10,113 nt of DNA from a virus (IMGVR_UViG_2574179916_000007); one strand, 5' to 3'. Shown: positions 2,778 to 6,888, counted from the first letter of the stretch. The notes: generated from the sequence alone by a model not told the origin. A program made the numbers and translations.

Positions 2778-3284
2778 TTAACAGTCGTAAAATTCTGGGT
2801 CCCACAAACTAGCATCGCGCGGCATGGATTCTAACTTTTTCAGCCGCAAAATTCTGTCACACTCGACAACTAATTTTTGCTTCTGCTCGTCAATTTCTAC
2901 TGTCTTATGTGCTGGTTCATCCCAATAATCCAGAAGGAAGGCATGGCGTTCAGATGTGACCAGATAAATCACATACACGTCACTGGTTGGGATCTTTTTA
3001 TGCTTGTTAGTGGTCTTGTCTTTCTTCCCAGACGCCCAGTTTTTCCAGCATTGTTCCGTACCGCTCTCACCAAACTTGTCAGTATAGTTTCCGATGTTTA
3101 CGTGAACGTGGCGTATGTGATATTCCAGCATTTCTTTCGGTGGATCCCGAAACAGAGTGTCCTTTCCGAAATCCTTATGATGACCGTAGCGCCAGTGATC
3201 TATGAACGCGTTTTTGATAGGTATTAGCTCAGGGTCCTTCCCAAAAATTCCAGGGTGAACCAACCCCTGGAATTTATTCAGCAT
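2778..3284 (-). CDS. Putative toxin of a two-gene module (168 aa); tentatively YafO-like mRNA interferase
   Basis: Start taken at the internal ATG (3284..3282), which overlaps the stop of the upstream gene in the arrangement GATGCTGAATAA (translational coupling). The ORF-track N-terminal extension would overlap the upstream gene by about 100 nt. His-rich motifs DFGKDTLFRDPP...LEYHIRHVHVNIGN and VIYLVTSERHAFLLDYWDEPAH resemble, from memory only, the YafO family (FGRD...HIHL...PEPH). Confidence 0.65.
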   Translation of the reverse strand: MLNKFQGLVHPGIFGKDPELIPIKNAFIDHWRYGHHKDFGKDTLFRDPPKEMLEYHIRHVHVNIGNYTDKFGESGTEQCWKNWASGKKDKTTNKHKKIPTSDVYVIYLVTSERHAFLLDYWDEPAHKTVEIDEQKQKLVVECDRILRLKKLESMPRDASLWDPEFYDC

Positions 3285-3693
3285 CGTCGTAGAGCTCCTG
3301 AGCCATATCTTCGGCAGTGCGTGCAAACATCCTGCGCGAGATTGCATGAGATTTCTCGACGGACATCTTTGGGACCTCATGCATAACATTTTTGGGAGTT
3401 GTGTAATAGCCTATTACAATTTTCACACCTGACTTATGATTAATATCAGCATAATATACTTCTTGTTCAGACGTTTCACGACGAACATAATCTGCCAGTT
3501 TTCCACATTTAAATTCCCCTCCCTGATGTTTTAAAATCTCCTCAACTGCACTATTTTCAGTGAAATACCGAATAAGAAATTTCTGTCCAGACTCTTCAGC
3601 ATGAGGTATAACAGTATTATTGGAAGCCCGAACAATGGCCTTACTCAATATTTCATGGTCTTTATTTTTTTCTGATTTCCTCAAATGCTGCAT
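3274..3693 (-). CDS. Putative antitoxin / partner protein (139 aa from first ATG) of the two-gene module
   Basis: ORF ending 8 nt inside the start of the downstream gene. The first ATG (3693..3691) has AAGAGAG about 8 nt upstream; alternative GTG (3723) or TTG (3729) starts would give up to 151 aa. The C-terminus is acidic (EDMAQELYDDAE), as in many antitoxins. No recognisable DNA-binding motif and no family identified. Confidence 0.6.
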   Translation of the reverse strand: MQHLRKSEKNKDHEILSKAIVRASNNTVIPHAEESGQKFLIRYFTENSAVEEILKHQGGEFKCGKLADYVRRETSEQEVYYADINHKSGVKIVIGYYTTPKNVMHEVPKMSVEKSHAISRRMFARTAEDMAQELYDDAE

Positions 3694-3825
3694 TACTGTA
3701 GCTCTCTTCGTGTTCACGGGCACCCCCAACTACCTCTAGGGTAAACATTCTATCGAAAGTATACGCATACTGGCAAAAAAATAGGCAGGTATTTTCTGAA
3801 ATGGGATAAATCAAACCATATAGGG

Positions 3826-3855
3826 TTGAAATAACGTGAGTTATGCATTTATTAT
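3826..3855 (+). promoter_or_regulatory. Candidate sigma70 promoter reading toward ant
   Basis: TTGAAA (3826..3831), 18-nt spacer, TATTAT (3850..3855). The operator repeat copy 2 begins at the 3' edge of the -10 element. Confidence 0.35.
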
Positions 3856-3870
3856 TACCTTTTCGGTAAA
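3854..3870. promoter_or_regulatory. Operator-like inverted repeat ATTACC-TTTTC-GGTAAA (copy 2 of 3)
   Basis: TTACC-N5-GGTAA with perfect 5-bp arms, overlapping the predicted -10 and transcription start of the ant-proximal promoter. Confidence 0.5.
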
Positions 3871-3962
3871 TTTACATTGCACTCCTCTTGTGCCATAGTA
3901 ATCGGGCACTGGCAAAATCCAGTGCCGGGATTGGTCTCCCGGATTACTACAGAGGCACATAT

Positions 3963-3982
3963 GCCGCATAAGCGGTTTTTTT
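3963..3982 (+). terminator. Terminator-like short hairpin plus U7 within the ant upstream region (possible attenuator or sRNA 3' end)
   Basis: GCCGC-ATAA-GCGG(T) stem-loop followed by TTTTTTT on the plus strand. The stem is short (4-5 bp), so this is weak on its own. Upstream hairpins lie at 3905..3926 and 3925..3942. Confidence 0.35.
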
Positions 3983-4137
3983 ATGTGTAAAGCGCACCTA
4001 TTCTATGGTGGGCTGTGTGGGGGCACCGAAAGGTGCGCCGGGTTCCTTTGTAGCCGGTAAGACCAACTCTGCACAGTTCACCACCATCTGATTGGTCTCA
4101 GCGGTGGTGATTAACCTAACTACAAAGGTGATCGCTA

Positions 4138-4829: not shown

Positions 4830-4871
4830 CGGGCGGCGGCACAGGGATGTGCCTACAATTATCAATAATTG

Positions 4872-4900
4872 TTTACACTCGTTGCAGTTAAAAGCATTAT
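4872..4900 (+). promoter_or_regulatory. Candidate sigma70 promoter for the 4951..5752 genes
   Basis: TTTACA (4872..4877), 17-nt spacer, CATTAT (4895..4900), in the AT-rich intergenic region after ant. Confidence 0.3.
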
Positions 4901-4913
4901 ACTCATGTTTAAA

Positions 4914-4930
4914 ATTACCCGATTGGTAAA
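4914..4930. promoter_or_regulatory. Operator-like inverted repeat ATTACC-CGATT-GGTAAA (copy 3 of 3)
   Basis: TTACC-N5-GGTAA with perfect arms, between the candidate promoter and the GAGG ribosome-binding site of the 4951 gene. Confidence 0.5.
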
Positions 4931-4950
4931 GTCGATTGGTTGAGGTTCAT

Positions 4951-5277
4951 ATGAGCAGAAGATATGTCAAGGAGCTGGCTATAGAGTCTGGCACCCCTTT
5001 GGGTATCGTTCCTGGCTCCAACTATGCCAAGGCTTTAAACCGAGACTCTGTCGTCAAAGTTATATCAAGAGACATGAATATGGTCGGAGACGATCTCAGA
5101 CGGTCAGAAAATCGTGTTTATGCTGAATATATAGTAAAGAACGGAAAAAAAATTGCAGCGCCTGCTGGCGGAAAATGGGCAATAGTGACAGGGAAAAACT
5201 CAAATGCAAGAGGAAAACCAGAAGCTAAAGGAATGTCCTTCGACAAATATGCAAAAATCTATTGGGCAACCAAGTGA
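4951..5277 (+). CDS. Hypothetical basic protein (108 aa); possible regulator
   Basis: ATG at 4951 with GAGG 5-6 nt upstream; the ORF-track start at 4936 is TTG. Lys/Arg-rich product with no recognised motif. Operator copy 3 sits in its leader. Confidence 0.55.
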   Translation: MSRRYVKELAIESGTPLGIVPGSNYAKALNRDSVVKVISRDMNMVGDDLRRSENRVYAEYIVKNGKKIAAPAGGKWAIVTGKNSNARGKPEAKGMSFDKYAKIYWATK

Positions 5278-5752
5278 TAACGAAGAAACTGAGTTCGAGG
5301 AAGTTGAGGAAGGGCTAAGTAACGAGATCATTCAACACCCAGATGCCTTCACAAGAGTTCTTGATCGCCCTGAAATTCAGGAGATAGTTGTCGCTCACCA
5401 TGCGTTTCAGGGTCCGCTTCCTCCCCCCTATCTGCTTCGCGGGTATCAGGATATTTTACCTGATGCCCCCGAACGCATCTTCCAGCTGACGGAGAAGGAG
5501 TTTGCTCACCGCCAGAAAATGGAGGAAAAGGCACTTGACGGGGCTATTAATAGAGATAAACGTGGGCAGTGGTTTGGCCTGAGTGCAACTATTTTTACAG
5601 TAGCTTGTGCAACATTATTAGGTTTAACAGGTCATGAAGTTCTAGCTGGCACAGTGATCGGTACAGTTGTTGCAGTGGCTGGTATTTTCGTTCTTAGACA
5701 AAAACCAAGCATCAAGAAGAAATCTGAAGACAACAAACCTGAAGAAAAGTAA
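5204..5752 (+). CDS. Hypothetical membrane protein (182 aa): acidic N-terminal region and two predicted C-terminal transmembrane helices
   Basis: ORF overlapping the upstream gene in another frame. Start is ambiguous: ATG 5204 (GGGA about 9 nt upstream) or ATG 5249. Hydrophobic stretches WFGLSATIFTVACATLLGL and LAGTVIGTVVAVAGIFVL are followed by a Lys-rich tail. A conserved-looking QGPLPPPYLLRGY motif is present. A strong terminator follows. Confidence 0.55.
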   Translation: MQEENQKLKECPSTNMQKSIGQPSDNEETEFEEVEEGLSNEIIQHPDAFTRVLDRPEIQEIVVAHHAFQGPLPPPYLLRGYQDILPDAPERIFQLTEKEFAHRQKMEEKALDGAINRDKRGQWFGLSATIFTVACATLLGLTGHEVLAGTVIGTVVAVAGIFVLRQKPSIKKKSEDNKPEEK

Positions 5753-5773
5753 GCCCGCGCTGCGGGCTTTTTT
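5753..5773 (+). terminator. Rho-independent terminator
   Basis: GCCCGC-GCT-GCGGGC hairpin followed by TTTTTT, immediately after the stop codon at 5750..5752. Confidence 0.75.
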
Positions 5774-5845
5774 GTGGACGAAACAAAAGTCAGTGCTACA
5801 CTCATTGACGCCACATTGAGGTGGCTTATAGATGGAAATTTCACA

Positions 5846-6007
5846 ATGAAAAAAGCATTTGCTGCACTGTTCGTTTTGTTGTCTCTGGTAGCTTCAACTC
5901 AGGCCTTTGCCGGTCGTTGTCAGCACGACAGCGATACTGCCGCTGACGGCTCCCGCTGCGGTGGGCGTTCTGCGGATTCCCGCCCTGGCGGCGGTGGCAT
6001 TCGTTAA
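5846..6007 (+). CDS. Small secreted peptide (53 aa precursor with Sec-type signal peptide)
   Basis: ATG at 5846 with GGAAA about 7 nt upstream. The N-terminus MKKAFAALFVLLSLVASTQAFA is a classic signal peptide with an AxA cleavage site. The mature part is Gly/Ser/Asp-rich with two Cys. A possible promoter is TTGACG (5805..5810) with TATAGA (5827..5832). The ORF-track GTG start at 5774 overlaps the upstream terminator. Confidence 0.45.
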   Translation: MKKAFAALFVLLSLVASTQAFAGRCQHDSDTAADGSRCGGRSADSRPGGGGIR

Positions 6008-6035
6008 AAACAAGGCCGCGAAAGCGGCCTGTTTG
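6006..6035. terminator. Bidirectional rho-independent terminator between convergent genes
   Basis: Hairpin GGCCGC-GAAA-GCGGCC at 6014..6029 is flanked by AAAAACAA on one side and TGTTTG on the other, so either strand reads hairpin plus U-rich tract. The hairpin is identical to the one at 2761..2776. Confidence 0.7.
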
Positions 6036-6036
6036 A

Positions 6037-6888
6037 TCACTGTGCAGTTTTCGCTGATCGATTTTCAGCTCTAAATTCAAGAACCGTTTCAATATTTCTT
6101 TCCTTCAGCATATCAATAACATTTTTATTCATTTGACTATCACTGGTTAATAACTGGTAAACGTTGCTTCTCTCTTTATCAGAGTTTTCTTTAACAGCTG
6201 CTTTGCATGCCAAATGCTTATTGAAATTTTCTACATCGCTAGTACAGGAATTTACGGCTGCTGATGAAATATCAGACGCTGAAGAAACACCGTCATCCAA
6301 ACGTTTTATAGCATTTTCTATACATGAGTTAAGGGAATAAACGACAACTGAGCGATACCCTTCAGACGCACACCATTCTAAATTTCTTGAAGGATCGAGT
6401 GGTTTTACTTCGCTGGATTGAATTAACTTGTCAAAAACTGACTTATATTCAATCTGTTTTTTATCTATAGCCCATACTTCAGTAGCTGATTTATAATTCC
6501 CCGTATGCCTATTAACATCAAATCCATGTTTTATAAGCAAATCTGCCCATGAAAGATTTATTGATTCATTGTTATGAGGCCATTTTCCTGTCAGAACCGC
6601 CCCCATAGACCCCATATATCCGCCATATGATGGTATAGCACCATGGCTCAGTAACTTCTCTGCAACCACAGGGCAATTAATTACATAAGAGGCGTAAAGC
6701 CCATTCCATAAAGCCCCTCTATAGTAATCGCCACGATTAGGTTCTTTTAAGTCGATAGCCTTTGATAATTGTTCGCACGTTTTGCATGCATCAAAGTTAT
6801 CCTTATTGCATTGCAATGAACTGGCAGCTGTAGGATTTACAGAGACTATTGAAAGCACTATGCCAAAAAACAAATTTATTTTTTTCAT
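6037..6888 (-). CDS. Secreted or periplasmic protein of unknown function (283 aa), AT-rich moron at the end of the structural operon
   Basis: ATG at 6888 lies 1 nt after the TAG stop of the upstream 1065-aa gene (TAGGATG), implying coupling. The N-terminus MKKINLFFGIVLSIVSVNPTAA is a signal peptide and is not a lipobox. The mature protein has multiple Cys. The gene is visibly lower in GC than the upstream gene. Segments VAEKLLSHGA and ADLLIKHGFDVN weakly resemble ankyrin-repeat helices. Confidence 0.75.
   Translation of the reverse strand: MKKINLFFGIVLSIVSVNPTAASSLQCNKDNFDACKTCEQLSKAIDLKEPNRGDYYRGALWNGLYASYVINCPVVAEKLLSHGAIPSYGGYMGSMGAVLTGKWPHNNESINLSWADLLIKHGFDVNRHTGNYKSATEVWAIDKKQIEYKSVFDKLIQSSEVKPLDPSRNLEWCASEGYRSVVVYSLNSCIENAIKRLDDGVSSASDISSAAVNSCTSDVENFNKHLACKAAVKENSDKERSNVYQLLTSDSQMNKNVIDMLKERNIETVLEFRAENRSAKTAQ

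Follow-up and report, generated by a model that had tools for sequence, protein, structure and literature searches.

Downstream of the antirepressor gene ant, a 10,113-nucleotide (nt) stretch of viral DNA (IMGVR_UViG_2574179916_000007, referred to as the window) carries two overlapping genes, open reading frame 1 (ORF1), which encodes a small basic protein, and ORF2, which encodes a membrane protein of the Pfam family DUF2335. Comparison of this pair with its relatives indicates that a DUF2335 gene and a small overlapping partner together form a conserved, old and widespread phage and prophage module that is functionally uncharacterised. An earlier sequence-only reading of the window had described the pair as a candidate regulator joined to a membrane protein with a candidate superinfection-exclusion function like that of SieA in phage P22. 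The layout that it proposed agrees with the results given here, and the two functional labels have fared less well.

The association of the two genes is seen among close relatives and far beyond them. Homologues of ORF2 occur in Escherichia coli, Salmonella, Klebsiella, Enterobacter, Leclercia and Rahnella, and all the close ones have an overlapping ORF1-like gene; the overlap measures 32–77 nt in all enterobacterial homologues and is present in most of the distant pairs. On contigs with ORF2 homologues of 70–81% identity, an ORF1-like gene overlaps the DUF2335 start every time, in some cases uncalled by annotators. A DUF2335 profile scan of IMG/VR and the GTDB species genomes yielded 94 further loci, down to 27% identity, and nearly all of these have a 60–110 amino acid (aa) ORF that ends about 10–140 nt (typically 20–60 nt) inside the DUF2335 gene. 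These partners share a recurrent signature, F-x-x-G-x-G-S-x-L-D ... D-x-E-A-L-x-x-D-W-x-x-V-G-x-D-x-R-x-A. An iterated hidden Markov model of the partner finds a match directly upstream and on the same strand at 87 of 106 DUF2335 loci, and only one match elsewhere in about 0.8 Mb of six-frame ORFs. The 19 loci without a match include six at contig edges and one pair split by an insertion sequence (IS); most of the others have sub-threshold look-alikes. ORF1 and ORF2 themselves show the arrangement by which the module is defined in this analysis, a small signature-bearing ORF immediately upstream of the DUF2335 gene, on the same strand and usually overlapping it.

The hosts of the module span Proteobacteria, Prevotellaceae, Desulfobacterales, Planctomycetota, Latescibacterota, Actinomycetes and one candidate-phylum bacterium, and the pair is found in cultured phages of Streptococcus, Arthrobacter, Leptospira, Ralstonia and Klebsiella. 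Within three genes on either side of 42 non-redundant loci no third conserved gene family was found. The commonest neighbours there are HTH_3, S24 peptidase, integrases and the small terminase, with occasional Abi_2, SocA_Panacea and YdaS. At some loci (L088, L065, L041) a truncated or frameshifted DUF2335 gene lies beside an intact partner.

The two genes and their products

ORF2 is read in the +1 frame relative to ORF1 and has two possible ATG starts, at 5204 and at 5249, the second giving a protein of 167 aa with the same stop (end 5752); the length of the overlap depends on this choice in the way that the sequence-only reading had calculated (Table 1). The start at 5204 is favoured because the N-terminal extension is kept, the second Met is absent and a Shine-Dalgarno (SD)-like stretch precedes the first ATG. 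Most homologues of similar length (~180 aa; Salmonella, Klebsiella, Enterobacter, Cronobacter) begin with M-Q/L-x-E-N/H, most are without a Met at the position of the second ATG, and the SD-like stretch, which is purine-rich, is found in most aligned homologues. Outside the overlap, comparison with an 88%-identical homologue gives ratios of nonsynonymous to synonymous substitution (dN/dS) of 0.23 (ORF1) and 0.07 (ORF2), which shows constraint on both frames; the two genes are under purifying selection. The corresponding dN values are 0.22 and 0.044, so that ORF1 evolves about five times faster. Both genes are annotated by the NCBI Prokaryotic Genome Annotation Pipeline (PGAP). As far as comparative sequence goes, ORF1–ORF2 is confirmed as a genuine, co-transcribed, overlapping two-gene unit downstream of ant.

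A programmed frameshift that would fuse ORF1 to ORF2 was considered and rejected, the ORF2 frame being open for only five codons before its ATG. Fused or frameshifted variants (P0004–P0006) do occur, and they fall at homopolymer A runs in short, low-coverage assemblies. ORF1 contains an A8 run at 5145–5152, and frameshifted or fused variants are present at this run and at a nearby A5 run in several short-read assemblies. These variants are probably sequencing errors, with slippage as the other possibility.

The membrane protein is the better defined of the two products. ORF2 matches DUF2335 (PF10097) at 1.6e-15 and 57.2 bits (gathering cut-off 25) over the full 50-position model, positions 1–50 of which correspond to residues 73–122, and it matches phrog_3996, labelled 'membrane protein', at 8e-60. 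DUF2335 is its sole Pfam match, and no match was found in NCBIfam. DUF2335 proteins have a near-invariant GPLPPP...Y...HR...RGQ core in a cytoplasmic N-terminal domain, followed by a C-terminal membrane hairpin. ORF2 has the same core of about 50 residues and, C-terminal to it, two hydrophobic helices; the residues G70, P71, L72, P73, P75, Y81, H102, R120, Q122 and G125 are invariant in the alignment of its homologues (A1). What sets it apart from the family at large is that its enterobacterial subgroup is longer at the N terminus by an acidic stretch of about 35 residues; the phrog profile begins to align only at residue 37. Residues 1–69 are acidic (16 D/E and 5 K/R) and are followed at residues 69–81 by the motif QGPLPPPYLLRGY. 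The two transmembrane (TM) helices are supported by Kyte-Doolittle peaks at residues 132 and 155 and by helices at 88–141 and 145–165 in an AlphaFold2 (AF2) model with a mean predicted local distance difference test (pLDDT) score of 62.5, in agreement with the acidic region, motif and two TM helices described in the sequence-only reading. Because K and R flank both helices (RDKRGQ before the first and RQKPSIKKK after the second), the positive-inside rule predicts that both termini are cytoplasmic (N-in/C-in). A Foldseek search of the PDB with the AF2 model gave nothing significant (only a match at E = 4.4), and profile searches of the PDB with the ORF1 and ORF2 families gave no match to a solved structure.

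That the pair is uncharacterised holds good: DUF2335 is a family without an assigned function, and PADLOC-DB v2 gave no significant match for ORF1, ORF2 or 30 partner homologues. A 'DUF2335 phospholipase' toxin domain is named in two papers on type VI secretion system effectors (10.1101/2023.07.16.549128; PMC6267618). No functional study of DUF2335 (PF10097, COG5346) was found in the literature searched. We take the phospholipase label to be most likely a slip for DUF2235 (Tle1-type lipases), and presumably it assigns no function to PF10097. The paper on phage vB_EcoP_ZX5 verified the adjoining antirepressor by overexpression and lists the genes for ORF1 and ORF2 merely as hypothetical.

The small partner is more divergent. 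ORF1 is basic (pI 10.0), as had been noted, has no hydrophobic segment, and matches phrog_10654 at 9.5e-66. Its first 60 residues carry the signature of the phrog_26284-type small partners (PHROG 10654/26284/27385), to which residues 12–52 (ESGTPLGIVPGSNY ... ISRDMNMVGDDLRRSE) align, and it differs from them in being a long form, with an extra basic C-terminal part of about 48 residues that ends in FDKYAKLYWATK, a motif inside the overlap. A bridging sequence, the partner at locus L048, matches phrog_26284 at 5e-21 and phrog_10654 at 2.4e-5. The long form is confined to Enterobacterales, where an exhaustive profile search found 11 clusters at 50% identity and no link to a known family; a word-indexed search with ORF1 reached relatives in a few enterobacterial clusters only. 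Neither ORF1 nor eight diverse partners gave anything significant against Pfam, ORF1 is likewise without an NCBIfam match, and its AF2 model is poor (pLDDT 50.8). The label of candidate regulator, for which basic charge was the sole ground, is not borne out: profile searches for DNA-binding folds found no helix-turn-helix (HTH), ribbon-helix-helix (RHH) or other DNA-binding domain in ORF1. A role as protein partner of ORF2 is likelier than one as a DNA-binding regulator, because what is conserved in ORF1 is the very signature found in the small partners of DUF2335 genes everywhere.

Control and mobility of the cassette

Comparison of the contexts in which the cassette occurs shows that the segment 4888–5776, with its predicted promoter, operator, ORF1, ORF2 and terminator, behaves as an autonomous, horizontally mobile two-gene cargo operon. 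A Klebsiella Uetakevirus-like prophage has the cassette, and so does a lambdoid Rahnella prophage, where it comes straight after the antiterminator gene Q; in Enterobacter it lies in an island, with Abi_2, an IS3 element and a gene for a 1283-aa protein as neighbours. The slot between the 3' end of ant and a gene for a 53-aa protein is a cargo hotspot across about 500 E. coli prophages (window 4830–5845 compared with L012 and L116–L119). Its inserts are ORF1 with DUF2335, a 59-aa gene with a YafO-family toxin (as in phage TL-2011b), DUF4760, a pair of 55 aa and 147 aa, a 210-aa gene, or almost nothing (as in phiV10); PADLOC gave no match for any of the alternative cargos. About 90% of the related E. 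coli prophages hold other cargo in the slot, and phiV10 and epsilon15 are without the pair. More distant pairs occupy classic moron or accessory positions. Arthrobacter phage Gusanita has the pair beside its immunity genes, with an integrase gene on each side; Streptococcus prophage Javan433 has it at the end of the prophage, after lytA; and in Klebsiella phage RAH1 it is preceded by an antirepressor that is inserted among the tail genes.

The operator-bearing promoter and strong terminator of the sequence-only reading were both found (Table 1), the terminator as an 8-bp stem with a T-run. Both candidate promoter hexamer pairs are kept upstream of the cassette in Enterobacter and Leclercia, and the SD sequence of ORF1 is kept in homologous cassettes. 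No canonical terminator was found between ant and ORF1, and read-through from the ant operon is therefore also possible. The operator belongs to a family of palindromes, TTACC-N5-GGTAA, with four sites in the window (0.23 expected) and 17 in the whole genome of phage EC.W1-9 (0.8 expected), nearly all of them intergenic and just upstream of genes or operons, including two between the putative repressor and a cro-like gene and two upstream of the leftward early operon. Epsilon15 has 15 copies of the motif, seven of which are annotated 'protein_bind: repressor; lysogeny' in RefSeq NC_004775, and the site before ORF1 is of this Uetakevirus repressor type, an ATTACC-N5-GGTAAT operator that overlaps a promoter. 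The same fusion of -10 hexamer and operator occurs at the isrK/C4/ant promoter (TATTAT|TACC, 3850–3869), and it precedes the cassette in Klebsiella, Enterobacter and Leclercia and most of the alternative slot cargos. Since the operator is identical to the site annotated for the repressor in epsilon15, and covers part of the -10/+1 region, the ORF1–ORF2 operon probably lies, like ant, in the prophage-repressor regulon, repressed in lysogens and made after infection or induction. The pair in Gram-positive prophages sits where lysogen-expressed genes usually lie, and the timing of expression may differ by host.

These operators stand before nearly all operons and are often joined to the final base of a -10 hexamer, a dispersed layout reminiscent of that of P1 C1. 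The Rahnella cassette keeps the -10/operator fusion (L109, 9632–9651) though its ORF1 is only 36% identical; this lambdoid prophage has its own cI/cro region without the motif, and the copy at the cassette is the sole one in 13.8 kb. In Enterobacter the fusion likewise stands with the cassette in a non-Uetakevirus context (L007, 5707–5721). Recent transfer could account for the retention of the operator in these cassettes, as could a host factor or a reader that the cassette itself encodes. ORF1 itself as the reader is unsupported, epsilon15 and TL-2011b carrying the motif without ORF1.

Table 1. Positions of the gene pair, its parts and its candidate control elements in the window
Feature	Position	Strand	Description
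TTACC-N5-GGTAA sites	2406-2420, 3730-3744, 3855-3869, 4915-4929		all sites in the window
c4-a1b1 target match	3893-3945		sub-threshold
isrK RNA	3906-3982		Rfam, 74.7 bits; upstream of ant
C4 antisense RNA	4001-4088		Rfam, 78.6 bits; upstream of ant
Second promoter candidate	4872-4900	+	TTTACA-17-CATTAT
Sigma-70-like promoter	4888-4915	+	TTAAAA, 16 nt, TAAAAT
Operator palindrome	4915-4929	+	TTACCCGATTGGTAA (TTACC-N5-GGTAA), fused to last base of -10 hexamer (TAAAAT|TACC); likely Uetakevirus repressor site
Shine-Dalgarno sequence	4942-4945	+	GAGG, 5 nt before ORF1 ATG
ORF1	4951-5277	+	108 aa, basic, soluble, pI 10.0; WP_001609225.1; phrog_10654
Partner signature	4951-5130	+	ORF1 residues 1-60; G-x-x-L-G/D-I...Y...D-M/W-x-x-V-G-x-D-x-R
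ORF2	5204-5752	+	182-aa DUF2335 membrane protein; WP_001154803.1; phrog_3996
ORF1/ORF2 overlap	5204-5277	+	out of frame, 74 nt; 29 nt if ORF2 begins at 5249
ORF1 C-terminal motif	5239-5274	+	FDKYAKIYWATK; enterobacterial long form only; within overlap
DUF2335 core	5420-5569	+	ORF2 residues 73-122
Transmembrane hairpin	5570-5695	+	TM1 ~123-142, 3-residue loop GHE, TM2 ~146-164
Intrinsic terminator	5751-5776	+	8-bp GC-rich stem 5751-5769, then TTTTTTG; stem can serve opposite strand

Source phage and neighbouring genes

The window is prophage DNA of an epsilon15-like podovirus of E. coli, genus Uetakevirus, and not of a P22-like phage. Escherichia phage EC.W1-9 (PP445227) matches its segment 4600–6100 at 100% identity and vB_EcoP_ZX5 does so at 99.4%, and the flanks of the segment match phiV10, TL-2011b and phiv142-3. 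Among 5426 complete E. coli genomes, 56 contain the same DNA as prophage sequence, and about 450 more match the flanks only. PGAP gives the gene order as tailspike (-), an 85-aa protein (+), a YafO-family toxin with its upstream partner (-), the BRO-N antirepressor (+), the 108-aa protein (+), the DUF2335 protein (+), the 53-aa protein (+), and 283-aa and DUF919 ejection-type genes (-). Because isrK and C4 RNAs lie upstream of ant, the immI region is of the P1/Gifsy type and not of the P22 mnt-arc-sar type, which makes an antisense RNA the probable controller of ant, in the manner of P1 immI, instead of the Mnt, Arc and sar of P22. The P22-like position claimed for the pair stands in one respect, in that the slot is an accessory (moron-type) one comparable in position to that of sieA, and fails in another, the phage being epsilon15-like with a P1-type immI.

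Several neighbours are of interest in their own right. The 85-aa gene (2497–2754, +), a homologue of epsilon15 gp19, is a stand-alone copy of the C-terminal domain of Ant: its product matches phrog_450 at 1.7e-47, and residues 163–243 of Ant match the same family. With its own operator at 2406–2420, this Ant-domain protein might modulate Ant. The YafO-family toxin gene (2778–3284, -) overlaps an upstream 147-aa gene (3274–3717, -; phrog_9503), and the two, divergent from the ant promoter and with a near-palindrome AGTATACGCATACT at their own promoter (3758–3771), are likely a toxin–antitoxin (TA) pair with an unclassified antitoxin. On the other side of the cassette, the 53-aa gene (5846–6007, +) has a product that belongs to phrog_14503 ('membrane associated') and combines a signal peptide with a tail rich in Gly and Arg. 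This conserved gene does not vary among Uetakevirus-like prophages, whereas the adjoining slot does, and a bidirectional terminator follows it (6013–6030). The 283-aa gene (6037–6888, -) is at the distal end of the ejection-protein operon, and its product has an N-terminal signal peptide, belongs to phrog_6118 and has no Pfam match.

Possible functions and significance

The preferred reading, held tentatively and at less than even confidence, is that the pair is a membrane-acting phage-conflict or toxin–antidote-like module. The overlap would couple translation of the two genes, the basic ORF1 would bind the acidic cytoplasmic domain of ORF2, and the proteins would work together as a complex on the inward side of the cytoplasmic membrane. 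In this Uetakevirus, production would follow infection or induction instead of being constitutive in the lysogen, and the module would exclude or abort competing phages or would act as a toxin–antidote-like pair, in which a fast-evolving partner controls a conserved membrane effector. The complementary charge of ORF1 and of the ORF2 N-terminal domain is consistent with this reading, as is the roughly fivefold faster evolution of the partner. The conservation of the pair as a module, its mobility and its cargo positions, and neighbours such as repressors, integrases, Abi_2, SocA_Panacea and YdaS also speak for it. The exclusion or defence idea of the sequence-only reading, TA-like variants included, is a reasonable guess that is likelier to be wrong than right. 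The wider proposition is doubtful: that partner+DUF2335 pairs are an unrecognised phage-encoded family of two-component membrane systems, present across bacterial phyla. A small, soluble, fast-evolving sensor or antidote would govern a conserved effector with a TM hairpin; the effector would block or abort competing phages, or would kill the host once this control fails. The Uetakevirus version would be tied to the prophage repressor regulon and would fire on infection or induction.

Several results weigh against a conflict module. No match was found in PADLOC, among NCBIfam TA families or among solved structures, and Pfam gives DUF2335 for ORF2 only; the AF2 models of both proteins are weak, and Foldseek is without a match. 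The neighbour families of the module are heterogeneous, and their enrichment near defence genes is modest. So strongly conserved a cytoplasmic core (50 residues) points to some specific biochemical activity and less to a simple pore, and the predicted repressor control argues against a defence expressed in the lysogen or a constitutive exclusion in the style of SieA. A comparable architecture is that of the abortive-infection proteins RexA and RexB of lambda, where the gene for the soluble component precedes that for the membrane effector within a single prophage operon, rexAB being expressed in lysogens with cI. ORF1–ORF2 is similar in architecture only, with a soluble partner upstream and a membrane effector; PADLOC gave no match that would point to homology, and RexB has four TM helices. 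The likeness to RexAB-type abortive systems, and to TA modules, is best taken as resemblance and not as membership.

It is unlikely that the pair is instead a lytic-cycle accessory at the membrane, serving lysis timing (as an antiholin or holin modulator), a replication or assembly site, or genome ejection or uptake. By its putative operator the pair would come under the repressor, as do ant and the early operons, the Rahnella copy stands immediately downstream of Q, and a two-TM hairpin with both termini inside is also the topology of class II holins. Against this, the pair is dispensable and swappable, as the prevalence of other cargo in its slot attests, it has its own promoter and terminator, and it runs antisense to the flanking late genes. 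ORF2, at 182 aa with a conserved 120-residue cytoplasmic domain that is atypical of holins, falls outside the class II holins (~65–95 aa, two TM helices, beside the endolysin), and the holin and endolysin genes lie elsewhere, beyond the tailspike, and do not adjoin the pair. Quite unlikely, in turn, is an addiction module of the TA type that stabilises its carrier element, with ORF2 as a membrane-damaging toxin and ORF1 as a labile, translationally coupled antidote. A small upstream gene that overlaps a larger downstream one behind its own promoter is in keeping with such a module, as are a faster-evolving partner, a cassette that is mobile across unrelated elements, and the loci at which a damaged DUF2335 gene stands beside an intact partner, although these truncations may be assembly errors. 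In TL-2011b and in many E. coli prophages this very slot is even filled by a bona fide TA-family pair, the 59-aa gene with YafO; that pair shares with ORF1–ORF2 the orientation, the small gene overlapping a larger downstream gene and the -10/operator fusion upstream, but there is no sequence relationship, and ORF2 is a membrane protein and not a ribosome-dependent RNase-type toxin. Neither protein matches a type II TA family in Pfam or NCBIfam, and ORF1 has no recognisable DNA-binding domain for autoregulation.

The combination originally proposed, in which ORF1 would be a DNA-binding regulator, possibly reading TTACC-N5-GGTAA, and ORF2 a SieA-like exclusion protein expressed from the prophage, is improbable. 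The basic charge of ORF1 fits it, and so does the operator that travels with the long-form cassette into the Rahnella prophage, whose cI/cro region has no such motif, and into the Enterobacter island; yet ORF1 has neither a DNA-binding match nor a confident fold, its conserved half is the universal partner signature, found in phyla where the operator does not occur, and epsilon15 (15 copies) and TL-2011b (at least 3) have the motif without ORF1. The pair does share with sieA of P22 an analogous position: in both cases a gene for a small inner-membrane protein runs antisense to the late operon, in an accessory region bounded by the ejection-protein genes on one side and the ant immunity region on the other. 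The analogy is positional only: ORF2 has no BLASTP alignment to SieA and an hhalign probability of 2.2%, and SieA is encoded by a single gene with its own constitutive promoter, whereas ORF1–ORF2 is a two-gene operon in another phage type, with a repressor operator over its promoter, the opposite of sieA-like constitutive expression. Homology to SieA is accordingly rejected here, and the preferred reading remains that of a conflict or toxin–antidote-like module, at the tentative strength given above.

The finding is in no way surprising in kind; the module is old, nearly invariant in organisation, unstudied and easily tested. DUF2335, a Pfam family without known function, occurs among the loci sampled here in phages and prophages of many phyla and almost always has a small overlapping partner, and in the Uetakeviruses of E. 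coli the pair shares a putatively repressor-controlled slot with toxin–antitoxin cassettes. What was annotated as a 'hypothetical protein' is thereby defined as part of a unit of two genes, open to cloning and to assays of phage exclusion, abortive infection, toxicity and lysis control. If no such phenotype were found, the pair would be an ordinary accessory gene pair, and proof of a conflict function would add a new family, and a very widespread one.

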